A DNA stretch of 53,801 bases, from assembly GCA_032718475.1 (NCBI GenBank), contig JAUCBJ010002606.1, positions 1-53,801 of the forward strand, read 5' to 3'. Numbering within the stretch: position 1 is the first letter of the stretch; each line of letters opens with the position of its first letter. Position numbers and translations under genes: made by a program. This stretch comes from Nemertoderma westbladi (Eukaryota; Animalia; Xenacoelomorpha). Under the pieces are notes generated by a model. The model was not told the DNA's origin. It did not search any database and saw only the letters and a program-made list of their open reading frames with translations. This document shows positions 10,861 through 41,448 of the stretch, piece by piece.

Positions 10861-11058
10861 TTCTTCTAGGATTGGCATGCTGCATTGCAGCTGCATTTTT
10901 AAGAATGCTGTGCCGGCTTGTAGACAAAATTGCGCCGCCACAACTCCCTATCACCCATGACATTTGCTAGATCATCCGCATCTTCAAGGCCAGTGTCCTT
11001 TAAGCTGTCCACCATGCTTATTCACTCCATGAGGTCGCCAAAGCCCAAGATTTTAGAT
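10861..11058 (-). mobile_element. Short 3'-end copy of the same RTE-like LINE found at 27902-28498
   Basis: 10866-11004 is the reverse complement of ~28354-28492 with few mismatches. 11005-11033 matches ~28301-28330, implying a ~23-bp internal deletion. Confidence 0.9.
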
Positions 11059-15800: not shown

Positions 15801-18009
15801 AACCTTTCCCGAACCCCTCAGTTCCTAATACAGGGAGCAACCTTTCCCGAACACCTCAGTTCCTAATACAGGGAGCAACCTTTCCCGAACCCCTCAGTTC
15901 CTAATACAGGGAGGAATCTTTCCCGAACACCTCAGTTCCTAATACAGGGAGCAACAGTTCCTAATACAGCGAGAAACAGTTCCTAATACAGGGAGCAACC
16001 TTTCCCGAACACCTCAGTTCCTAATACAGGGAGCAACAGTTCCTAATACAGGGAGCAACCTTTCCCGAACCCCTCAGTTCCTAATACAGGGAGCAACCTT
16101 TCCCGAACCCCTCAGTTCCTAATACAGGGAGCAACAGTTCCTAATACAGGGAGCCACCTTTCCCGAACACCTCAGTTCCTAATACAGGGAGCAACAGTTC
16201 CTAATACAGGGAGCAACCTTTCCCGAACCCCTCAGTTCCTAATACAGGGAGCAACCTTTCCCGAACCCCTCAGTTCCTAATACAGGGAGCAACAGTTCCT
16301 AATACAGGGAGCAACCTTTCCCGAACCCCTCAGTTCCTAATACAGGGAGCAACCTTTCCCGAACACCTCAGTTCCTAATACAGGGAGCAACCTATCCCGA
16401 ACCCCTCAGTTCCTAATACAGGGAGCAACCTATCCCGAACCCCTCAGTTCCTAATACAGGGAGCAACCTTTCCCGAACCCCTCAGTTCCTAATACAGGGA
16501 GCAACCTTTCCCGAACACCTCAGTTCCTAATACAGGGAGCAACCTTTCCCGAACCCCTCAGTTCCTAATACAGGGAGCAACCTTTCCCGAACCCCTCAGT
16601 TCCTAATACAGGGAGCAACCTTTCCCGAACACCTCAGTTCCTAATACAGGGAGCAACCTTTCCCGAACCCCTCAGTTCCTAATACAGGGAGCAACCTATC
16701 CCGAACCCCTCAGTTCCTAATACAGGGAGCAACCTTTCCCGAACACCTCAGTTCCTAATAAAGGGAGCAACCTTTCCCGAACACCTCAGTTCCTAATACA
16801 GGGAGCAACCTTTCCCGAACCCCTCAGTTCCTAATACAGGGAGCAACCTATCCCGAACCCCTCAGTTCCTAATACAGGGAGCAACCTTTCCCGAACACCT
16901 CAGTTCCTAATACAGGGAGCAACCTTTCCCGAACCCCTCAGTTCCTAATACAGGGAGCAACCTTTCCCGAACCCCTCAGTTCCTAATACAGGGAGCAACC
17001 TTTCCCGAACACCTCAGTTCCTAATACAGGGAGCAACCTATCCCGAACCCCTCAGTTCCTAATACAGGGAGCAACCTTTCCCGGACCCCTCAGTTCCTAA
17101 TACAGGGAGCAACCTATCCCGAACCCCACAGTTCCTAATACAGGGAGCAACCTATCCCGAACACCTCAGTTCCTAATACAGGGAGCAACCTTTCCCGAAC
17201 ACCTCAGTTCCTAATACAGGGAGCAACCTTTCCCGAACCCCTCAGTTCCTAATACAGGGAGCAACCTATCCCGAACCCCACAGTTCCTAATACAGGGAGC
17301 AACAGTTCCTAATACAGGGAGCAACCTTTCCCGAACACCTCAGTTCCTAATACAGGGAGCAACCTTTCCCGAACACCTCAGTTCCTAATACAGGGAGCAA
17401 CCTTTCCCGAACACCTCAGTTCCTAATACAGGGAGCAACCTTTCCCGAACACCTCAGTTCCTAACACAGGGAGCAAAAGTTCCTAATACAGGGAGCAACA
17501 GTTCCTAATACAGGGAGCAACCTTTCCCGAACCCCTCAGTTCCTAATACAGGGAGCAACAGTTCCTAATACAGGGAGCAACCTATCCCGAACACCTCAGT
17601 TCCTAATACAGGGAGCAACCTTTCCCGAACCCCTCAGTTCCTAATACAGAGAGCAACCTATCCCGAACCCCACAGTTCCTAATACAGGGAGCAACAGTTC
17701 CTAATACAGGGAGCAACCTTTCCCGAACCCCTCAGTTCCTAATACAGGGAGCAACAGTTCCTAATACAGGGAGCAACCTATCCCGAACACCTCAGTTCCT
17801 AATACAGGGAGCAACCTTTCCCGAACCCCTCAGTTCCTAATACAGGGAGCAACCTTTCCCGAACACCTCAGTTCCTAATACAGGGAGCAACCTATCCCGA
17901 ACCCCACAGTTCCTAATACAGGGAGCAACCTTTCCCGAACACCTCAGTTCCTAATACAGGGAGCAACCTTTCCCGAACCCCACAGTTCCTAATACAGGGA
18001 GCAACCTTT
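12833..18009. repeat. Minisatellite C (left part), 38-bp unit CCTCAGTTCCTAATACAGGGAGCAACCTTTCCCGAACA with interspersed 22-bp short units
   Basis: Tandem periodicity of 38 bp; short unit CAGTTCCTAATACAG(G/C)GAGCAA; interrupted mid-unit by the LTR element. Confidence 0.99.
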
Positions 18010-18552
18010 TGTGACGGGATCCAGGAGGGATCCCGATTTATCCGGTGTGGTAATTTAGTCCACGCGTCCCCGCCGTGTATAAGGATGAAATAAAGTAACT
18101 GAGTTCTGAAGTTCGGTGTATAATAATAATAGGGCATGGGATATAGATATAGATATAATGTGTACAAGGCGGGATACGGTAACTAAAGTCCCGTGATCCC
18201 CTAACTAAACTAAAGTACAATACCAACCTACGCTAGCACTGCTGCACTGAGATAACTGAATCACTGATTAATAGGTTATTGGTTATATTGCACGGTGGCC
18301 TTATTGCTACTCAATCGATGCCTTGCCCCCCTCTGATTGGTTGTTACCCTTGTTGGCGCCCCGTGGAGTGTTCCCGTTCACTCCACCTGTTCTCTCTGGG
18401 TTAGGGGTTTGGCCCCTGACCCTCTATTGTGTGCTTCCTTCCCACTCTTATTGGGATGGCACGAGTTGGTTAATTGCCCAATCTCGTGGCTCCCAATATT
18501 GCTTATCGGCTTATAACTTTATGGGGTGTTAGCGGGATTGAATAAGCTAACA
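18010..18552 (-). repeat. 3' LTR (543 bp)
   Basis: tgtgacggg...aagctaaca; identical by eye to 24680-25222 except 18053 A vs 24723 T. Confidence 0.97.
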
Positions 18553-18561
18553 CTCCCCCCC
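18553..18561 (-). promoter_or_regulatory. Polypurine tract (GGGGGGGAG) immediately upstream of the 3' LTR
   Basis: Plus strand ctccccccc abuts the LTR end; canonical PPT position for a minus-strand element. Confidence 0.85.
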
Positions 18562-19254
18562 ATGCTATCTTCCCGGTAAGAAGATAGCATCAACCAAAAA
18601 GTGCGCTACAATCCCGCTGGATCCCGATCTAGTATCGGGTGTGGGGTGGAATTCTTTTCTCTTGGAGCCGGCTTTCCAGGCCGCCCCCTATGGGTATGAT
18701 AACGCTACCCTGTGTGCCTGGCGTCTCATGTCGGGCCGATCGCGCTCACCTCTTCACGCGACTTTTGTTTCCCCAACACTTTCGCCCTATCTCCCCTCTA
18801 CTCTCACCCTAACTCTCTCATACCCCCGGACTTCCTCGTCCCTCACTCAGCCTCTTATTCTCCCCCCCCACACTAGAATTGCGTTCGCACTCTCTCCGCA
18901 CTTCGCACTCTTACTCCGATCCTCAACTCCACTTTGACTATTTTATCTCTCCTGACGAACCTCCCCCCCCTCTCGTGCCGTCGCACTCAAGAAGCGTGAA
19001 ATTGTCAGTTGTCTCGTCCATAGTGCCATAGTCAGTTATCCCCCAGTCCCAGTAGCTAATTGAGAAAGGTTGTATGACTATAGTACTTACTCCAAACGTA
19101 TGTATTTTAGATTACTAATTACTACGTACGTACATACAAATTGCACTTATATGATTATTTGCATTAATTAAATTTACACTTAATAGTTCGTACGTTCCAC
19201 GCGGCGCCTTCCAGGCACACCACGTCTCAGTCTCACTCCCTCGACTCTGAGAAC

Positions 19255-21789
19255 CTATCTGTTCCTCCTGACGTCCTCTTCCCTGGCCCGTTTCTTGGTT
19301 ATCACCGTTCCTCTGGCATCATCCGCTTTCTGCTTTCGGACCTTCGCCGCCACTTCCTTGCTAATCCCGGTCGTTGGCTCCTTGGGCGCTGGTGTTATTA
19401 GTGCCCGATATCGCTTCGCCGGTGGCCCCTCAGAATGGCCCGGTTGTCTCCCTCGAGTGGCGTCCCATAGGATCATTTTCATTGCCTTTGGTACGTGTTC
19501 CGCCAAGAAATCCCTAAACTCCCTCCGGTTCTCTGGTGTCCACCTGTCCAGGTACCGTTGCGTGTTCATAACTCCGGCGAACGACGCCGCCGTTGCTACC
19601 TCTTGATAGGTAAACGGTAACCTTCGCTTTATGATTTCCATGTGGGTCTCCTGGTTTATGAGGAAGAAACCCCACTTGAATTCTTGGGCATTCATGCGCT
19701 GGCGCGTCATGGCCCCGACGTCCGCCCACTCCTCGAATCTCGTGAACTTCTCCTCGTCGCTCATCCAGTCGCACTCGCGCCCGTAGTGTCCCCGAAAATG
19801 GCACTTTGGACATCGGTTATGCAACCGTGGACACGCCCCCATCCTGTGGCTTGGTTCTCTACAGTAGAGACAAAAGGTTCCCCGTTGGAACCGGTATAGG
19901 CAGCTGCTTTCCTGATGGGTCTGTCTCCCACAGTAGTCGCAGCCGAGTACCAATGTCTCCCGTCCCACCTCGTCTCTCGTCCCGAGCAATCTCCGCAGTC
20001 TGTGGAGTCGCTGGTAGGCGAACTTCTCTACGTTGGTCTCCCTGTTTACGTCGATCTCTCCGCCCCTCTCGGGCATCGTCTCCCCGAATACTATCCGTGG
20101 TGCCGTCCCCGGCTGCTCGCCCAACCTGATGGTGCTCCCCGCGAAATCCATCGCCGGCTCCTCGTGCACCCAGGTCCGCTTGCCGGATCTGTTCCAGAAG
20201 GCCCTCGCCCCACTGGCCGTCACCACCCTTCCGCCAACCCAGTCCGTGTCCGAGTGGCCTATCCTTTCGATGGGCGGCATCTCTCCGAAATCGTCGCCGT
20301 CGTCTTCCTCTTCTGGTAGTGTTTCCAACCCCGGTATCCCGATGGATCCACTATGTCCCTTCCCGCCTTGGCTCTCGCCCGTAGCTCTCCATCCCTCTAG
20401 CTCCCTTAGCTTCCTTGGCAGTTGGTCGCCCTCGGCGCCCGCTGGTATGGGCATCGTTTGCAACCCCGACGTCGACTGTTTCGGCGATCCCACCGTCCAT
20501 CCCAATTCTCGCCCTAGAGACTCCCCCGAACTCCCTGACGAAGTCCAATGAAGTTCGTCTAGGCCCGCCTGTTCCTCGAAGCCGTAACTCTGTGCCCTGG
20601 CCTCCTCTTCCCTCTCCTCTGCTTCTATCCTCTCCCGTCTAGCGACTTCTTCCAGTCGCTTTGCTTCTCGTCTGTCCGCCTCTAGCTGCTCCCATCTCTG
20701 ATACGGTGTATCTGTCTCCCCGTCTACCAGATGTCGGCTGTTGTAGTACACCGACTCGCCCTTCAGCCCCGGGTGGTCTACCAGACCGTCAAAGGCCACT
20801 TTAAAGGCTCTCCTGTAGCTTAGGGGTGATCCCGATAACAGAAATGCCCCTGGTTCCCTCTCGATAACCACGGTCATGAATAAGTTAAGCAAACTTATCA
20901 TCATCCAGTCCTCCTGCAGGATATATCGCTTCTGATATACCTTTATCGCTCCCCTGCGGAACTGATATACCTCCTGCTTTCCCGGTCTCGCTCCCCACTT
21001 CAGCGAGTTCGCTAGTTCTGCCCCGTATTCTTCCCTAAACTTTCCCCAGTCCATCGGTTTGTGGCATACGAGCCCCAATAATTGGCCCATCGCCACAGCC
21101 CCGCATTGGCCTGTGTTTTCGACTACCCCCAATCCATCCGGTGCCGTCATAGCCATAAAGACTTTCTGCATATCCAGGAGGTTGGTGGCGTCCGGACCGA
21201 TGATCCTCTCCGCGTCCTCGCGAATCGCCGATCCCACCTTCGTCGTCGACTTCTCCCTTACTAAGACTTGTACCGCTTTCGGTAATCGGTCTAGTTTCGG
21301 CCCGTCCTTCTTCCCATACGTCCCTAGGTCGAATAAGAAGATGTCCCCATTTGGCGCGGCCAAATGTAGGAGTATGGTCCTGGCCGACCCTGCCGTTCCT
21401 CGTCTTGAACCCGCTTCGTCTTCCACGGTTCCCTCGTCATCTAGGATCATATATCCTCCCCTGTTGACGGACTCTATGAACCTCTTCCAGTCCTTCCTCG
21501 GTGATTCCCTCGGATACTTCGGAATCCCGAACTTCGCCTCGTCCCCTTTCACCACGTAGTGGAAGTGTTGGAAGATCGCGTTGTCCAGCGACGGCGTTCC
21601 GTAGGTCCCGACCAGCCGCTGCTCGTGCATCTCCCGGAAGTGGTCCTGCAGCGCTCGTGCCGCGTGACCCCTTTCCAACTTCTCGTAGTATCCTCTCGTC
21701 TTCTCCTCCGGGTGTCTTTCGGTGAAATCCACCAGTATTTCTTTTCCTCCTGACTCCGCCTTCCTCTTCCTGATCAACTTACTCGCCAT
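19255..21789 (-). CDS. ORF2: 844-aa protein with N-terminal DEDDy 3'-5' exonuclease domain (WRN/EXD2/mut-7/RNase D-like), charged coiled-coil/disordered linker and three CCHC zinc knuckles
   Basis: Uninterrupted ORF; first ATG at 21789 in strong Kozak context (GGAATGG). ExoI MILDDEG; LLHLAAPNGDIFLFDL; ExoII LPKAVQVLVREKSTTKVGSAIREDAERI; NLLDMQ; ExoIII-like YQKRYILQED. Knuckles CDYCGRQTHQESSC, CLYCREPSHRMGAC and CPKCHFRGHYGREC at 19771-19941. Confidence 0.85.
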   Translation of the reverse strand: MASKLIRKRKAESGGKEILVDFTERHPEEKTRGYYEKLERGHAARALQDHFREMHEQRLVGTYGTPSLDNAIFQHFHYVVKGDEAKFGIPKYPRESPRKDWKRFIESVNRGGYMILDDEGTVEDEAGSRRGTAGSARTILLHLAAPNGDIFLFDLGTYGKKDGPKLDRLPKAVQVLVREKSTTKVGSAIREDAERIIGPDATNLLDMQKVFMAMTAPDGLGVVENTGQCGAVAMGQLLGLVCHKPMDWGKFREEYGAELANSLKWGARPGKQEVYQFRRGAIKVYQKRYILQEDWMMISLLNLFMTVVIEREPGAFLLSGSPLSYRRAFKVAFDGLVDHPGLKGESVYYNSRHLVDGETDTPYQRWEQLEADRREAKRLEEVARRERIEAEEREEEARAQSYGFEEQAGLDELHWTSSGSSGESLGRELGWTVGSPKQSTSGLQTMPIPAGAEGDQLPRKLRELEGWRATGESQGGKGHSGSIGIPGLETLPEEEDDGDDFGEMPPIERIGHSDTDWVGGRVVTASGARAFWNRSGKRTWVHEEPAMDFAGSTIRLGEQPGTAPRIVFGETMPERGGEIDVNRETNVEKFAYQRLHRLRRLLGTRDEVGRETLVLGCDYCGRQTHQESSCLYRFQRGTFCLYCREPSHRMGACPRLHNRCPKCHFRGHYGRECDWMSDEEKFTRFEEWADVGAMTRQRMNAQEFKWGFFLINQETHMEIIKRRLPFTYQEVATAASFAGVMNTQRYLDRWTPENRREFRDFLAEHVPKAMKMILWDATRGRQPGHSEGPPAKRYRALITPAPKEPTTGISKEVAAKVRKQKADDARGTVITKKRAREEDVRRNR

Positions 21790-22239
21790 TCCGAACACTA
21801 CACTCGCTCACCTGCAGGGTGGTGCCTTACCAAGGCGCAATACAGATGAGTGATGTATTAAGATATTTCGTACGGTTCGATAATGGCCTACTTTCTACTT
21901 AATTGCGCCTTTTAGCCTAAATTTAACCTAATTAATTTTGAAGCTAGTAAATGAGTAAATTAGGCTCATTTCTGTCCGTTACTTTTATTATGTTCTAGAA
22001 CGACTTCCCTTGTGTTGCCACTATTTCTAACTTTCAGCCCTATTCTATTTATTTTAATTCTACTGTCCTACTACCTATTACTGCCTATGGATTATTCTAT
22101 TCTCTAATCCATATTCTGGCCTACTTTGTGGGCCTATGCAGTACAGCAGTATACGTCGTGTGGCCACACGATTTACCCAGCTGTACTCATATGCCCCCCT
22201 CCCGCTACTAACTCTACTTACTGCTAACTAATATCTATA

Positions 22240-22938
22240 TCCTATTTACCCCTTTTACCTCTTACTCTCTCTCTTCTAACTAATGGTACTGCGTACCCTC
22301 TAACTCTAACTAACGGTACTACGTACCTACTAACTCTAACTCTAACTAGCGGTACTACGTACCCTCTAACTCTAACTCTAACTAGCGGTACTACGTACCC
22401 TCTAACTCTAACTCTAACTGGCGGTACTACGTACCCTCTAACTCTAACTCTAACTAGCGGTACTACGTACCCTCTAGCTCTAACTCTAGGCACTACGTAC
22501 CTACTAACTCTCTAACTCTAGGCACTACGTACCTACTAACTAACTAACTAACTCTAGGTACTACGTACCTACTAACTCTCTAACTCTAGGCACTACGTAC
22601 CTACTAACTAACTAACTCTAGGTACTACGTACCTACTAACTCTCTAACTCTAGGCACTACGTACCTACTAACTCTCTAACTCTAGGCACTACGTACCTAC
22701 TAACTCTCTAACTCTAGGCACTACGTACCTACTAACTAACTAACTCTAGGTACTACGTACCTACTAACTAACTAACTCTAGGTACTACGTACCTACTAAC
22801 CAACTAACTCTAGGTACTACGTACCTACTAACTAACTAACTCTAGGTACTACGTACCTACTAACTCTCTAACTCTAGGCACTATGTACCTACTAACTAAC
22901 TAACTCTAGGTACTACGTACCTACTAACTAACTAACTA
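22240..22938. repeat. Element-internal tandem array of ~30-36 bp units (ACTAACTCTAGGTACTACGTACCT core)
   Basis: Tandem units between ORF1 and ORF2; core TAGGTAC-tac-GTACCTA is a 7-bp inverted repeat. Confidence 0.95.
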
Positions 22939-23080
22939 TTTTTTATTTTATTTTTATTTTATTTGTGTGGGAAGGGCGTCTCGCCCTCAATCCCACCCCC
23001 CTCAGTCCAAAACTTGGACGACTAAACTACGCACTAACTCCACTTCTAAGGTGCCCCTTCTAGAAGACAGGTAACACCTC

Positions 23081-23200
23081 TGCCCGCACCTTTTACGGAT
23101 CTAACTCTTCCATCCCAGTCCAACCTGTTGGACAACTCAGCGACCCAAGGGGTGATTCCTCCAGCAGGCAACTCTCCCACTGCCCCCCTATAGGTTCTCT
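23081..23200 (-). pseudogene. Frameshifted remnant of BEL/Pao integrase C-terminal region (DUF5641-like)
   Basis: Reading across frames on minus: REP..VGE..CLLEES-PLGR-VVQQV-G-DGRVRSVK-VR, compared with the recalled consensus R.P.VGD.VL..E....WPLGRV..V..G.DG.VRSV.V. Confidence 0.55.
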
Positions 23201-24547
23201 AATTCTTCGCTCCGTTCTCCTTGTCAATTCGATAGGTGGTCTTTTCTCCTGTTTTTGGAAATGCTGTCTGCTATTTATGTTTCTGATCTCGTGGTCGTCC
23301 CTTGGCGGCAAAGTGCCACCCTTCAACGTGTCACCCGGCGGTATAATGCCGCCCCTGTTCTTCTCCTTAATCTTAGATGCCACCTCTGTTGGCCTCCCCC
23401 TTAATATGTGTGCTGGCATTAAAGGCTTCAACGACCCCCGTTCGTCCTTCGGTATACACGATGTCTCCCTACACTCCTTTTCCTCTATTTCCTCACGCTC
23501 CCTAAGATTTCTCAAAGCCCTCTCTGCCCTCTCTCCGGTTTCTCTAATCAATGCTTCTTCCCTCGCTAACCGCACTCTCCCCTCCTCTAACCGTTCCTCC
23601 ATTTCCCTTTGACCTTGTTCTACCATGCTGAGACGGTATGCGGCACCTATCTCTCTCACCACTCTTTCTTTCGCGGAGGATGTAGCAGACTTATCAGTTA
23701 CAACGGACCCCCTCCGCCTTCCCGACCTACTAACTTTCCCCCGCTTCCCCGAACTCTCTCTGACCGACGAGGCCGAATCCTCGGGGTTAACCTCGGATCC
23801 GCCCCCCTCGGGTTCCCTCCAACCCACTAATTTTGCTCCCCGGGCATCGACCAAGTATGGCCCTATGTACACTGGCGCTACGCTAGGTTCCATACTCCCG
23901 CACTCCCATAGTTCAAACAGTTCGCCCGCAACCCCTTTTGCTCTCTCCCCGGCTAGTTCTCTCTGCCCAAAACGTATTAGGTAATTAAAGTGTCTATCCG
24001 ACTCACCTAGTCGCTTTCTCAGTCTCACCTCGTCTACCTTCGCCCCTTCCTTCTTGGCGTCCTTCATCAGCTTCCGGGTCGCGTTGTAGGCCCGTCGAAG
24101 TCGTTCTGAAACCCCGACGTCCTCGTCGCCGACCTCTCCTCCGTCCCTCCGGGTTCGGCGTCGTACCGGCGGCCCCACCGTCGCCGTTCCGGTGGGCCGT
24201 CCGTCGCCCTCGGCCTGTAGCTGGCCGGCGACATCGGTACCGATCTCTCCTCTGTCTCTTCGCGTCCGGCGTCGCACCGTCGGCCCCACCGTCGCCGTTT
24301 CGGTGGGCCGCTCGTCGCCCTCGGCCGGTAGCTGGCCGGCGATATCAGCGCGCCGTTCTCCGTCTCGTGTCGACTCGTCTCCATCTCCCTCCGTCCCGCT
24401 CTCGCTTTCTCTTGGCTCGTTCTGGACTTCCGGTTCGCCCGTTATCGATGGCTCCGGCGTCGTGGGCCTGTATCGCTTGGTCGCGGCCTCGCGGATCGTT
24501 TGATCTTCGTCCGGGGTCCGCGTCGGTGTCTCGCCCGATTCACTCAT
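23093..24547 (-). CDS. ORF1: 484-aa truncated Gag-like protein (BEL/Pao-type N-terminus, no capsid or zinc fingers)
   Basis: ATG ~130 nt downstream of the 5' LTR. EVNPEDSASSV + Ser/Arg-rich tract + SSAKER + Glu/Arg coiled coil resembles the P-x-DS-x-S-x-V / coiled-coil N-terminus I recall from BEL/Pao Gag. 37-aa internal duplication. Confidence 0.65.
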   Translation of the reverse strand: MSESGETPTRTPDEDQTIREAATKRYRPTTPEPSITGEPEVQNEPRESESGTEGDGDESTRDGERRADIAGQLPAEGDERPTETATVGPTVRRRTRRDRGEIGTDVAGQLQAEGDGRPTGTATVGPPVRRRTRRDGGEVGDEDVGVSERLRRAYNATRKLMKDAKKEGAKVDEVRLRKRLGESDRHFNYLIRFGQRELAGERAKGVAGELFELWECGSMEPSVAPVYIGPYLVDARGAKLVGWREPEGGGSEVNPEDSASSVRESSGKRGKVSRSGRRRGSVVTDKSATSSAKERVVREIGAAYRLSMVEQGQREMEERLEEGRVRLAREEALIRETGERAERALRNLREREEIEEKECRETSCIPKDERGSLKPLMPAHILRGRPTEVASKIKEKNRGGIIPPGDTLKGGTLPPRDDHEIRNINSRQHFQKQEKRPPIELTRRTERRIREPIGGQWESCLLEESPLGSLSCPTGWTGMEELDP

Positions 24548-24679
24548 CTCGTCTGGTGGCTGATGGTTCGGCTAGCTAGGCTGCAGTTTTTGATGTTCAA
24601 CTGGGGCTTCTTCCTCGGATTTAGTTACTAGTAGGTGGTTTGGGTTTTAGTTACTGTTCAGGGCACCGGGTTTAGTTAC

Positions 24680-25222
24680 TGTGACGGGATCCAGGAGGGA
24701 TCCCGATTTATCCGGTGTGGTATTTTAGTCCACGCGTCCCCGCCGTGTATAAGGATGAAATAAAGTAACTGAGTTCTGAAGTTCGGTGTATAATAATAAT
24801 AGGGCATGGGATATAGATATAGATATAATGTGTACAAGGCGGGATACGGTAACTAAAGTCCCGTGATCCCCTAACTAAACTAAAGTACAATACCAACCTA
24901 CGCTAGCACTGCTGCACTGAGATAACTGAATCACTGATTAATAGGTTATTGGTTATATTGCACGGTGGCCTTATTGCTACTCAATCGATGCCTTGCCCCC
25001 CTCTGATTGGTTGTTACCCTTGTTGGCGCCCCGTGGAGTGTTCCCGTTCACTCCACCTGTTCTCTCTGGGTTAGGGGTTTGGCCCCTGACCCTCTATTGT
25101 GTGCTTCCTTCCCACTCTTATTGGGATGGCACGAGTTGGTTAATTGCCCAATCTCGTGGCTCCCAATATTGCTTATCGGCTTATAACTTTATGGGGTGTT
25201 AGCGGGATTGAATAAGCTAACA
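24680..25222 (-). repeat. 5' LTR (543 bp)
   Basis: Direct repeat of 18010-18552, followed by TSD CCTTT and resumption of the satellite in register. Confidence 0.97.
24924..25010 (-). promoter_or_regulatory. Putative LTR Pol II promoter: CCAAT (25010-25006), TATAA (24957-24953), Inr TCAGTT with A+1 at 24927
   Basis: TATA lies exactly 30 nt upstream of an arthropod-type initiator A; CCAAT at about -80. Confidence 0.6.
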
Positions 25223-27812
25223 CCTTTCCCGAACACCTCAGTTCCTAATACAGGGAGCAACCTTTCCCGAACACCTCAGTTCCTAATACAGGGAGCAACC
25301 TTTCCCGAACCCCTCAGTTCCTAAAACAGGGAGCAACCTTTCCCGAACACCTCAGTTCCTAATACAGGGAGCAACCTTTCCCGAACACCTCAGTTCCTAA
25401 CACAGGGAGCAAAAGTTCCTAATACAGGGAGCAACTTTTCCCGAACACCTCAGTTCCTAATACAGGGAGCAACCTTTCCCGAACCCCTCAGTTCCTAAAA
25501 CAGGGAGCAACCTTTCCCGAACACCTCAGTTCCTAACACAGGGAGCAACAGTTCCTAATACAGCGAGCAAAAGTTCCTAATACAGGGAGCAACCTTTCCC
25601 GAACACCTCAGTTCCTAATACAGGGAGCAACCTTTCCCGAACCCCTCAGTTCCTAATACAGGGAGCAACCTTTCCCGAACCCCTCAGTTCCTAGTACAGG
25701 GAGCAACCTCTCCCGAACACCTCAGTTCCTAATACAGGGAGCAACCTTTCCCGAACCCCTCAGTTCCTAAAACAGGGAGCAACCTTTCCCGAACACCTCA
25801 GTTCCTAACACAGGGAGCAACAGTTCCTAATACAGCGAGCAAAAGTTCCTAATACAGGGAGCAACCTTTCCCGAACACCTCAGTTCCTATCACAGGGAGC
25901 AACAGTTCCTAATACAGCGAGCAACAGTTCCTAATACAGGGAGCAACCTTTCCCGAACACCTCAGTTCCTAGTACAGGGAGCAACCTTTCCCGGACCCCT
26001 CAGTTCCTAATACAGGGAGCAACCTTTCCCGAACCCCTCAGTTCCTAATACAGGGAGCAACCTTTCCCGAACACCTCAGTTCCTAATACAGGGAGCAACC
26101 TTTCCCGAACCCCTCAGTTCCTAACACAGGGAGCAACAGTTCCTAATACAGCGAGAAACAGTTCCTAATACAGGGAGCAACCTATCCCGAACACCTCAGT
26201 TCCTAATACAGGGAGCAACAGTTCCTAATACAGCGAGCAACAGTTCCTAATACAGCGAGCAACATTTCCTAACACAGGGAGCAACAGTTCCTAATACAGC
26301 GAGAAACAGTTCCTAATACAGGGAGCAACCTATCCCGAACACCTCAGTTCCTAATACAGGGAGCAACAGTTCCTAATACAGCGAGCAACAGTTCCTAATA
26401 CAGCGAGCAACCGTTCCTAATACAGGGAGCAACCTTTCCCGAACACCTCAGTTCCTAACACAGGGAGCAACCTATACCGAACACCTCAGTTCCTAACACC
26501 GGGAGCAACCTATCCCGAACACCTCAGTTCCTAATACAGGGAGCAACCTTTCCCGAACACCTCAGTTCTTAACACAGGGAGCAACACTTCCTAATACAGC
26601 GAGCAACAGTTCCTAATACAGCGAGCAACAGTTCCTAATACAGCGAGCAACAGTTCCTAATACAGCGAGCAACAGTTCCTAATACAGGGAGCAACCTTTC
26701 CCGAACACCTCAGTTCCTAATACAAGGAGCAACCTTTCCCGAACACCTCAGTTCCTAATACAGGGAGCAACAGTTCCTAATACAGGGAGCAACCTTTCCC
26801 GAACAGCTCAGTTCCTAATACAAGGAGCAACCTATCCCGAACACCTCAGTTCCTAATACAGGGAGCAACCTTTCCCGAACACCTCAGTTCCTAATACAAG
26901 GAGCAACCTATCCCGAACACCTCAGTTCCTAATACAGGGAGCAACCTTTCCCGAACACCTCAGTTCCTAATACAGGGAGCAACCTATCCCGAACACCTCA
27001 GTTCCTAATACAGGGAGCAAACTTTCCCGAACACCTCAGTTCCTAATACAAGGAGCAACCTTTCCCGAACACCTCAGTTCCTAATACAGGGAGCAACAGT
27101 TCCTAATACAGGGAGCAACCTATCTCGAACACCTCAGTTCCTAATACAGGGAGCAACCTTTCCCGAACACCTCAGTTCCTAATACAGGGAGCAACCTATC
27201 CCGAACACCTCAGTTCCTAATACAGGGAGCAACCTATCCCGAACACCTCAGTTCCTAATACTGGGAGCAACCTATCCCGAACACCTCAGTTCCTAACACA
27301 GGGAGCAACCTTTACCGAACACCTCAGTTCCTAATACAGGGAGCAACCTTTCCCGAACACCTCAGTTCCTAATACAGGGAGCAACCTATCCCGAACACCT
27401 CAGTTCCTAATACAGGGAGCAACCTATCCCGAACACCTCAGTTCCTAACACAGGGAGCAACCTTTCCCGAACACCTCAGTTCCTAATACAGGGAGCAACC
27501 TTTCCCGAACACCTCAGTTCCTAATACAGGGAGCAACCTTTCCCGAACACCACAGTTCCTAATACAGGGAGCAACAGTTCCTAATACAGGGAGCAACCTT
27601 TCCCGAACACCTCAGTTCCTAATACAAGGAGCAACCTATCCCGAACACCTCAGTTCCTAATACAGGGAGCAACCTTTCCCGAACCCCTCAGTTCCTAATA
27701 CAGGGAGCAACAGTTCCTAATACAGGGAGCAACAGTTCCTAATACACGGAGCAACCTTTTCCGAACACCTCAGTTCCTAATACAGGGAGCAACCTTTCCC
27801 GAACACCTCAGT
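25223..27812. repeat. Minisatellite C (right part), same 38/22-bp units
   Basis: Continues in phase after the TSD. Confidence 0.99.
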
Positions 27813-27901
27813 GATGCATAATGATGAAGAAGTAAGTAGAATGGAAATCTCAGTGCACAATGGAATGATTCTGATAAAGTTGAGGAGTATTATACGATAA
27901 T

Positions 27902-28498
27902 CCTGGGATCATGAAGTCAGGTGAGGACCTTCGAATACGTAAGGGAAAGGCATGGGCAGCCTTGAATAGGCTTTCCAGGATTTGGAAGTCACCGAGAATT
28001 AATCGGAAACTTAAGGTCCGATTATTTAGAGCAGCAGTAGTTCCAGTACTCCTCTATGGGAGTCCATGCTGGGCTCTAACTGCTAAGGACACCAAATCTC
28101 TGGATGGCACATTCACAAGAATGCTACGTCGGGTTCATTGTGTCAAGTTCAATGCACACATCTCCAACCAGACACTATATAACATTGGAGGTGTCTCATT
28201 GGTTCCCCCAAGCTTGACACTAGAACAAAATCGCCTCCGCTTTGCAGGACATTGCTTTCGCCGTGAGGACCAGCCAGTGCATAATCTTGTACTTTGGCAG
28301 CCTCATGGAGTGAATAAGCATGGTGGACAGCCCATGACTTTCTTGAGACGCATCTTAAAGGACACTGGCCTTGAAGATGCGGATAATCTAGCAAATGTCA
28401 TGGGTGATAGGGAGTTGTGGCGGCGCAATTTTGGCGACAAGCCGGCACAGCATTCTTAAAAATACAGCTGCAATGCAGCATGCCGATCCTAGTAGTAG
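27902..28498 (+). mobile_element. 5'-truncated RTE-clade non-LTR retrotransposon (C-terminal 182 aa of the RT ORF, 27911-28459)
   Basis: RIRKGKAWAALNRLSRIWKS..KLKVRLFRAAVVPVLLYGS..W, RLRFAGHCFR and DRELWR are RTE C-terminal motifs; short 3' UTR ends in (TAG)n; 11-bp TSD TATACGATAAT at 27891-27901 and 28499-28509. Confidence 0.9.
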
Positions 28499-38925: not shown

Positions 38926-39508
38926 TAAAGGTATTCAATTCACACGAAAGCAAATCAAAATCAAAATCGGTGCTCAACTCACTCTGACCAAAAAACGAAC
39001 TCAACAGTAAACACAGAAAAAAATATATTATACGACATACCGAATCAATTCTCCGATAAAACAGAGAAACACAATGAAGGCACACTCACTGCACACACCT
39101 AAGCTCATAAATTATTTGGTGTAAATTATAATATAATATATGCTGCGAGCAAAGATTGACAGAGGTTGGATCGAGTGCAGCAGGTGGCAGCGGTTGGGCA
39201 ATTAAACCGCTTATTGAATTAACCATGTGAGCCGTCGCCCGCTCAGCCTTTCAACCCTGACCACAAATAAATAATATAATATAACCTAACAAATTTGTAA
39301 GCTGAATTATTCGCTTATCAAATTCGAACTTCACTACGAAAAGCGGCTAATTGAGAAAACAAAACAAGTGCACTTTGGTTACTCCCTGAGAGAAACTTCA
39401 TTCGAATTGTAGATTAGGTAATCGAGTTGGATATAGGGACTACATGGTGTAGTGTAGGGGATCGGAATTCAAAGTAAATTACATAGAATTAATTAGAAAT
39501 CAACTAAC

Positions 39509-41013
39509 CCAACTCGATTTGTCGATGAGGGAACTCGCCCCTCCTGCTGAGGTAACGCACTTGTGGTGTTCCGGTGTCTGGGACTCGTTGTCATGGGTAC
39601 CGGTGCCTAGGGACAGCAGCTCTCCGGATGAGCCGCACGCCACCGCAGCCGCCGACGACAGACTCTGGTAGAAGTCGGCGCTGCGCGGGAAATTCAAACC
39701 GGGGTCCGACATCCTCGCCTTTATCAGATGCTTCCGGTACTCGCTGGGTGGCGCTGGGTCCACCGCGTCCTCCCCGCCTTGTGACGTCACCGTGATGACG
39801 GGTAGTTTTGAGGCGGACTGGATCCCCGGGATGGAACCGGTTTTGGGACGACCGCCGGCGGGAGTCGAGGCGGTTCGCATTACCGGTACCGCGGTAGAGT
39901 ACGGCGTAACTTCGTCGTCGTCCACTAAATGGCCGCATTTCTCGCAGATAAACACAACGTCCGGCGGTATTGGCGGATGCTGCTCCTGTTTCTTACTCTC
40001 CGGGTGGCACGAAGGCGGACCGAACTGTGACGTCATTATGACGTCACCAAACTCGTCACAGCTCTCATCAGAGGAAGAGGGTCGCGGCGACGGAGAAAGG
40101 GCTAGAGCGGCGCCGTCGAATGACCCCAAATGATTGTGGTAATTACTTTCACTTTCGTTGTAGATGCGATAAATTTCATCGAATGTGTGGTTTTTTAGCA
40201 GGTCGGCTGGATCTGCCTCTTTTGAGTTATTTGTATCCCACTCATTGGCCGAGTAATCTCTGAGGTCTCCAGTAGACGTATACTTGTGTCTCACGGCCCG
40301 TGTGTGAGTTTGAGTGTGAACCGAGTAGCATTGAATACCTGTTCCCGGCATCCTACATCCTATTGATATAGAGCCGGGTTTCGCAACTCCATTAGGCTCG
40401 ATTGGCCAATGAGACGCGTTTCCTTCCGTCCTGCAATCATCCCTCCCTTCCCTACTGAGTCGCCTGCGGGGTGACGGATCACCTAGGCCGCTCTCCCCGC
40501 CTAGGCAGTCATAGGAATGCCAACGAGCTATTCCATCCATGGATTCTTTCCTGTGGCCATCACCGCATTTATTCACGGTATTATTTGCGCCCGTCATGGA
40601 ATAATTCTTCTTTATAAACTTGGATCTTATCCATTCGGCACTTGTGTCCAAAAAGTTTACGGTTCTACTTCTCTGCTTTTTTGGCCGATTACGGTTTTTA
40701 TATTTATTTTTGTTTCTAAATATTTCCGTCGAAGGAGTTTGGGGGGCGGTTCGGGATATTTCCGAGGAGATTTCGTCGGAATCGGTAAGGCAACCGGAAT
40801 GCGACGCCGCCCGCCCGTGGGACCGGCTACGGTAGAAACGCAACGATTTCACGGCGCCACTCATCGTTCTTATTTCACCGCCATTACTTTCAGTTTCGTG
40901 ACGAGCGGAACCGGTCCATTGACTCAACTCAGACTCTGTCGCCAGTGACGTCATCCCGAAACAATCCGCCATATAGGATTCAAATACCTTCGCGTCGGTC
41001 AAATCATCCAAAG
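39509..41013 (-). CDS. Large (1505-bp) internal coding exon of an unidentified host gene; ~501 aa, Ser/Pro/Gly-rich, probably disordered
   Basis: 503-codon stop-free frame with GC well above the flanks, bounded by acceptor atttattttag|CT (41014/41013) and donor TGG|gttagt (39509/39508). No recognisable domain. Confidence 0.75.
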
Positions 41014-41448
41014 CTAAAATAAATGTTAAAAAAAAAACTGAATAATAACTTGATGGTGTTGATGCAAACTGAACAATTGCGAATGTGAAAGAAAATAGCT
41101 GATAGCATGGCGATAGAAGGCTGTCATTTGTTTTTTATATTGTATTATATATTATTTATATTTATCGGTAACAAACTTATAGTATGAAAATGATAAATTA
41201 CAAATCAAAATTATAAGTTGGTACGAATGAAACATTAGTGATGAAACCCGGAGTTGCATTCACCTTAATTATTACAGAAAGTATAAACAATATCCACTCA
41301 ATTCGTTCTCGTTTATATCGATTTAACTTTTAAATTACAATTACCAAATAATGGGGATAAATAATGGGGACACTAGAGGCGCCACTTTTCACGGTTCTCG
41401 TGGATCTCGCAGGTTACAAGAGTAGCGGATGAATATATCGGCGGATGT

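Follow-up and report, generated by a model that had tools for sequence, protein, structure and literature searches.

RNase D-like DEDDy exonucleases have been described as accessory genes of bdelloid rotifer retroelements, where they form ORF3 (the third open reading frame, ORF) behind pol in the long terminal repeat (LTR) retrotransposons Juno and Vesta and in Athena/Terminon, and carry no membrane domain (PMC5408684). In 2017 their authors called such exonucleases previously unreported in retrotransposons (PMC5408684), and the case was cited by the later reviews PMC5718144, PMC6431247, and PMC6338049. A cellular enzyme with a comparable chain is RNase D of T. brucei (TbRND; PDB 7C42/7C45/7C4B), in which a DEDD 3'-5' exonuclease is followed by C-terminal CCHC fingers, a pairing that its authors call very unusual (PMC7797062). 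BEL/Pao elements (Belpaoviridae) are metazoan, and their env-bearing members comprise LTRs, a gag-pol with Peptidase_A17 and DUF5641, and an ORF downstream of pol that encodes a glycoprotein (PMC3118150). Here, we describe an accessory gene in a 53,801-nt stretch of Nemertoderma westbladi DNA (assembly GCA_032718475.1, contig JAUCBJ010002606.1, positions 1 to 53,801, forward strand; hereafter the window). The gene lies in an LTR element and encodes a predicted DEDDy exonuclease domain and three CCHC knuckles in one chain; it belongs to a real accessory gene family of BEL/Pao retrotransposons that is under selection and apparently undescribed.

The reading frame was intact on the minus strand, with its ATG at 21789 and its stop at 19255, and was organized as follows.

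19255..21789, minus strand: accessory ORF of 844 aa, comprising the DEDDy exonuclease domain, a linker, three CCHC knuckles, and a helical C-terminal domain
20800..21549, minus strand: predicted DEDDy exonuclease domain, about aa 81-330 (profile, family alignment, and Foldseek)
19957..20577, minus strand: low-confidence linker, about aa 405-611, probably disordered (most of it with pLDDT under 50)
19771..19941, minus strand: three CX2CX4HX4C knuckles, aa 617-673 (motif match)
19450..19764, minus strand: helical domain behind the knuckles, about aa 676-780 (conserved; best PDB E 0.49)

A first-pass annotation, made from the letters of the window alone, had named the intact ORF and a series of motifs, and all of them were present. 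ExoI reads MILDDEG at 114, LHLAAP at 141 and FLFDL at 151 form the strand pair, ExoII reads KVGSAIRED at 184, LLDMQ is found at 204, and the ExoIII-like motif reads QKRYILQED at 286. In the family alignment, D117, E119, D192, Y289, and E293 of the window protein occupy the conserved columns, and the four acidic positions and Y289 are complete. The ExoIII-like pattern Q-x-x-Y-x3-E-D stood, with E293 (Y+4) and not D294 as the fourth acid in the alignment; E as the last acid was also found in 21 of the 86 aligned rows. The knuckles span exactly 617-630, 640-653, and 660-673. The basic ends, annotated as resembling nuclear localization signals, exist in the window protein (RKRK at 7, PPAKRYR at 789, and KKRAR at 832), whereas a strict C-terminal basic cluster occurred in only 5 of 41 complete relatives, which gives no support to basic tails as a conserved trait. 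No transmembrane segment was detected in the window protein, whose hydropathy peaked at 1.3, and a hydrophobic window of at least 2.0 was found in only 1 of 45 relatives.

The window protein alone had no Pfam match, the PF01612 match that had been anticipated was not reached at the cut-off, and nothing below E 0.18 was found among PDB sequences, so the exonuclease assignment needed relatives. Word-index protein searches with the protein or its alignment found nothing. A phmmer search of 1.84 billion representatives gave 70 matches, nearly all through the knuckles and the conserved domain behind them; the ten that were looked up were all nameless. The N-terminal parts of 37 long matches were used (two more were left out). 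A profile built from the query and 12 of these parts retrieved 16 of the remaining 25, and the DEDDy pattern was visible in the family alignment. Among the relatives, PF01612 was matched once in 39 at 6e-5, just under the cut-off, and once in 49 domains at 0.002.

A 27-row family profile matched EXD2 (E 5e-12), WRN (4e-5), Egalitarian (6e-4), and both domains of TbRND, and an exonuclease-only profile of 49 rows matched EXD2 at 4e-11 and nothing else below 0.05. AlphaFold, which was useless from the single sequence (pLDDT 32), gave two confident domains (pLDDT mostly 70-95) with a disordered linker between them when 27 sequences were supplied. The top Foldseek structures for this model were TbRND, Nibbler (TM 0.61 by target), Egalitarian, and Rrp6, and EXD2 was also found. 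Thus, the window protein is predicted to have a DnaQ/RNase H-like fold in its N-terminal domain and to be a DEDDy enzyme of the RNase D/WRN/EXD type, in agreement with the first-pass assignment to the WRN/EXD2/RNase D-type exonucleases. The profile of the knuckles and C-terminal domain gave a best E of 0.49 against PDB, with no known structural counterpart.

The first-pass annotation knew of no such fusion in a BEL/Pao-type element; the chain as such does have a precedent in TbRND, which carries its 3'-5' exonuclease and four CCHC fingers together (PMC7797062). TbRND was the top Foldseek match, and both of its domains matched the family profile. It is, however, a cellular enzyme that trims guide RNAs, and its two parts are joined by about 28 aa (PMC7797062). 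In the window protein the linker measures some 280 aa, the knuckles number three, and a further domain follows at the C-terminus. The identity was 13-15%, and the similar architecture may therefore be convergent. The EXD2 exonuclease domain (PDB 6K17) was the best profile match, with its first 125 or so positions well covered, but its second half aligned poorly to the family profile; EXD2 as the donor of the domain is a lead.

Some variation was observed within the family. Relatives P0001 and P0068 have a duplicated knuckle block, and P0055 ends in a homeodomain match, possibly a gene-call fusion. Very long versions of the ORF (L005:40-4815, L051:5002-9657, L043:1226-5476, and L015:335-4318) measure 1,330-1,590 aa between stops; they are extended at the N-terminus by 500-950 aa and have no Pfam match.

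The genomic context was taken from a degenerate motif scan of metagenome contigs, which yielded at least 120 loci, 80 of them with flanks; the locus counts given below are among those listed. The same motif had no match in viral contigs. The exonuclease profile matched 56 of the 80 flanked loci. Peptidase_A17 and/or DUF5641 were found by Pfam in 28 of 30 large neighboring ORFs scanned, and the remaining two ORFs lay downstream of the gene. A same-strand pol was located upstream of the gene at 36 of 40 metagenomic loci having at least 3.5 kb of upstream sequence. With a Pao-type pol ahead of it in relatives, the gene is a genuine third ORF in a BEL/Pao lineage. The "env position" and BEL/Pao affiliation of the first-pass annotation hold in this sense for the relatives, but they are unreadable from the window copy, which has no pol. 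Among the four pol-less exceptions (L005, L052, L071, and L012), the contigs of L005 and L052 may end before pol, since both are similar to L051 with its ORF of about 1,550 aa, and L071 does not match the family profile.

Descent together with pol was supported by distances at 26 loci carrying both (Mantel rho 0.87; 0 of 999 permutations as high), and supported groups were common to the pol tree and the exonuclease tree, the latter being a quick one. The catalytic acids were scored in 86 aligned exonuclease domains, some near-duplicates included. All four were kept in 44, one was lost in 2, two or more were lost in 28, and 12 domains were partial, so that 28 of the 74 fully covered domains have lost two or more acids. 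These dead domains were not scattered: 11 of 12 dead rows fell into one group of the pol tree (99/99), and 16 of 19 grouped in the tree of both domains with support of 100.

Selection was estimated for 37 of 48 locus domains, which gave 40 pairs at 50% identity or more, three of them saturated. The dN/dS ratio was 0.035-0.57 in all 37 unsaturated pairs. Close pairs showed 0.035-0.11 in the dead clade and 0.09-0.17 among intact domains, and the low values of the former indicate that the dead domain is maintained as a protein. Judged from these ratios, the exonuclease gene is under purifying selection, dead clade included. Of the outcomes that the first-pass annotation regarded as adverse, the lack of a DnaQ/RNase H-like fold and neutral decay could be checked, and neither was found. 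Its proposal of an element-encoded RNA nuclease fared worse: selection maintains the domain throughout a clade that has lost the catalytic acids, so cutting is not the conserved core.

The window element also belongs to a multi-copy family. Half or more of the sampled words of the ORF were present in three sequencing runs from two studies. Contigs matching the element yielded 19,670 records in one run and 8,220 in another, covering all 30 bins at identities from under 90% to over 99%; these records indicate many divergent copies, but neither they nor the summed contig depth measure copy number. The ORF holds 25 of the best-supported 40 variant rows (of about 700), and 18 of these 25 listed sites were synonymous, compared with 23-30% expected; in the exonuclease domain it was 10 of 10. 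No indel fell within the ORF among 12 listed of 111, and an indel 11 bases upstream of the ATG fits position 21789 as the start. A contig from another study covers 23015-23466 (the end of ORF1) without pol and with 14 differences. The pol-less layout is therefore not unique to the window copy.

The element carrying the gene has the following features.

18010..25222, minus strand: whole LTR element, 7,213 bp, inserted in a 38-bp satellite array; pol undetected
24680..25222, minus strand: 5' LTR, 543 bp, with TG...CA ends and one mismatch against the 3' LTR
18010..18552, minus strand: 3' LTR, 543 bp (LTR pair alignment)
25223..25227, minus strand: target-site duplication AAAGG, 5 bp, upstream copy
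18005..18009, minus strand: target-site duplication AAAGG, 5 bp, downstream copy
18553..18560, minus strand: polypurine tract adjoining the 3' LTR
24671..24679, minus strand: primer-binding-site position; TGG start absent, 9 nt complementary to LTR position 366
23093..24571, minus strand: ORF1, 492 aa between stops, occupying the gag position (ORF listing)
22275..22938, strand unassigned: tandem array of 32-bp units separating ORF1 from the exonuclease ORF

Between the LTRs, only ORF1, the 32-bp tandem array, and the exonuclease ORF were found. The insertion is recent, as the LTRs differ by one mismatch and their ends and the target duplication are intact. No pol was detected in this copy by the ORF listing, by tblastn with the polyproteins of relatives, or by profiles of pol and its C-terminal domain. 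The window element is thus a young, non-autonomous carrier in which pol is undetectable; the LTR ends, target duplication, and polypurine tract expected of BEL/Pao are there, and a Pao-type pol is not. A scrap at 23049-23198 was considered as the end of a BEL pol and rejected, the profile of relatives being silent and 42 of 200 shuffles scoring equally. ORF1 had no Pfam match and a best match of E 0.09 among the ORFs of relatives, and a DSASS-like gag motif was absent from the gag ORFs of the relatives. A second internally deleted, LTR-bounded carrier is locus L022 (5187-10931), in which LTR copies about 5.3 kb apart enclose a 396-aa first ORF and the exonuclease gene, the latter interrupted by one stop, while pol is reduced to its end.

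No TGG primer site was present after the 5' LTR of the window element (24630-24679). A 9-nt stretch there is complementary to the LTR (positions 344 and 366), a length reached by 46 of 3000 shuffles, and the self-priming signal in this element is weak. The stretch occurs three times with small changes, and other copies appear to keep it, the DNA behind it varying (joints at 24671). Self-priming as a trait of the family was rejected, since relatives have TGG-type sites. Such a site was common to the intact and dead clades (a match in 22 of 28 regions examined), and the relatives share just a short constant core of it.

At the loci of the main dead clade, the stop of pol was TGA in 14 of 17, followed by C in 12, and the accessory ORF lay in frame with pol behind this single stop at 10 of 17 (about 1 expected), compared with 2 of 23 at the others. 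The in-frame loci were L007, L021, L031, L034, L039, L065, L066, L068, L069, and L080, together with L029 and L076. TGA-C is a leaky stop context. The layout hints at a possible stop-codon readthrough giving a Gag-Pol-ORF3 fusion. Against this, the loci share ancestry, conservation of the spacer is poor, and in four close relatives the frame is broken.

As to function, we lean toward the view that the gene is the third, accessory gene of the BEL/Pao lineage and that its product, a predicted EXD2-like exonuclease plus knuckles, binds RNA, mainly that of the element itself. By analogy with TbRND, in which the fingers increase RNA binding and cleavage (PMC7797062), single-stranded RNA would be gripped by the knuckles together with the C-terminal domain, and its 3' end would sit in the exonuclease pocket. 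Where all four acids are kept, as in the window copy, the pocket may also trim the held end. In the dead clade the domain would bind without cutting, like EXD1 and Maelstrom, which have been cited as inactive DEDD derivatives retaining RNA binding (PMC5408684). The persistence of the dead clade suggests that binding, and not cutting, is the conserved core. The RNA of the element itself is favored as the target because a pol-less family retains the gene under selection, while a product shared between elements could be supplied by a helper; candidate roles are packaging, escort, or handling of the 3' end.

Several points weigh against this view. The own-RNA step has a single evolutionary argument, and a gene-less helper or selection at the level of the family would also preserve a shared product. 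EXD2, the closest cellular match, has both DNA and RNA as substrates. The 25 variant sites in the ORF come from the 40 best-supported rows of about 700, and the three close dead pairs, being combinations of three sequences, are not independent. On the tree the window protein forms a long branch, shares no more than 24% identity with any sampled relative, and falls into no supported group; its BEL/Pao ancestry therefore comes from the family and not from its own pol. In addition, ORF1 is unlike the gag of the relatives, and locus L012 has the C-terminal domain yet no pol in 10 kb upstream.

The main rival, a silencing suppressor acting in trans, which would bind and degrade or over-trim host piRNAs or siRNAs and whose dead variants would sequester them, is possible, though we do not consider it probable. 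The Foldseek neighbors include small-RNA trimmers and piRNA factors (Nibbler and Exd1), and TbRND trims guide RNAs (PMC7797062); the gene is accessory, its product has no membrane segment, and many persisting copies suit a counter-defence. However, the fold also occurs in many enzymes unrelated to silencing, and a diffusible product could be dropped by pol-less copies, whereas the family in the window keeps the gene under selection. A fuller scenario along these lines, which we hold to be unlikely, is that an old BEL/Pao lineage encodes a TbRND-like destroyer of small RNAs as a counter-defence, that in one sub-lineage this enzyme became an RNA sponge that no longer cuts and may reach the particle through stop-codon readthrough, and that pol-less carriers spread with the gene retained.

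A role on DNA in reverse transcription or integration, such as proofreading or trimming of cDNA ends inside the particle, is quite unlikely. EXD2 and WRN were the best profile matches, and an in-frame ORF behind a single pol stop could load the domain into the particle by readthrough. Yet the in-frame layout was commonest in the very clade that has lost the catalytic acids, and the window copy has no pol to fuse to. CCHC knuckles, moreover, chiefly bind single-stranded RNA. Maturation of the reverse-transcription primer, with the exonuclease trimming a tRNA or self-primer to its paired length, seems very improbable. RNase D-type enzymes do trim structured RNA ends (PMC5408684), the window copy has the 9-nt match to its own LTR in place of a TGG site, and the constant core in relatives is short; however, that match is weak, and the TGG-type site is the same in intact and dead clades, which shows that the loss of catalysis brought no change of primer type. 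The primer-processing factor of the first-pass annotation thus gained no support. A passively captured host gene or an env substitute, to which cellular proteins of the same fold and the place of the ORF might point, is scarcely credible and largely refuted by the co-descent with pol, the purifying selection, and the near absence of hydrophobic segments.

With respect to the rotifer elements, the first-pass annotation had correctly pointed to DEDDy extra ORFs in this group, which are ORF3 of Juno and Vesta (PMC5408684). The carriers differ, being BEL/Pao relatives here. The exonuclease of the present family is fused to three CCHC knuckles and an extra domain, whereas in rotifers knuckles are mentioned in gag/pol, and a Cys-His-Cys motif in two DEDDy ORFs (PMC5408684). 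The rotifer ORF3s were described as recent, nearly neutral, and common to different types of element (PMC5408684), in contrast to the co-descent with pol and purifying selection found here; they are set apart from the window family by their published description, not by sequence. Unlike the glycoprotein of env-bearing BEL/Pao elements, the third ORF here is soluble and nuclease-like. The word "exonuclease" does not occur in the main text of a 62-genome survey of BEL/Pao (PMC3118150), and the excerpted texts of PMC5029228 and PMC11662393 contain nothing on an exonuclease ORF in BEL/Pao. No report of such an ORF was found in the literature searched, partly in excerpt, with Repbase and Dfam outside that search. 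A 3'-5' exonuclease may exist in some BEL-type Cer elements of C. elegans. If so, the combination of BEL/Pao and exonuclease is not new, and novelty might still lie in the fusion to knuckles, the domain at the C-terminus, and the dead clade.

About ten unrelated, highly homogeneous satellite arrays with 25-56-bp units (398-52765) make up roughly half of the window. A 191-aa frame at 27884-28456 (plus strand), judged by eye, resembles a LINE reverse transcriptase at its C-terminal end. The segments 10863-11007 and 28351-28495 form a 145-bp inverted pair at 95%. A 544-aa host-like exon at 39503-41134 (minus strand) had no match in Pfam or among longer proteins, and no tRNA or Rfam match was found in the window.

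Since the family is invisible to Pfam, repeat annotations will miss the exonuclease gene. The work on rotifers demonstrated no activity of their DEDDy ORFs and no advantage from them (PMC5408684). The family described here is large, selected, and vertically inherited, and it offers natural controls in its intact and dead clades and in carriers with and without pol. If host small RNAs were the target, the gene would give animals a case of an anti-silencing nuclease encoded by a transposon; with the RNA of the element as the target, it would add an extra step to the BEL/Pao life cycle.

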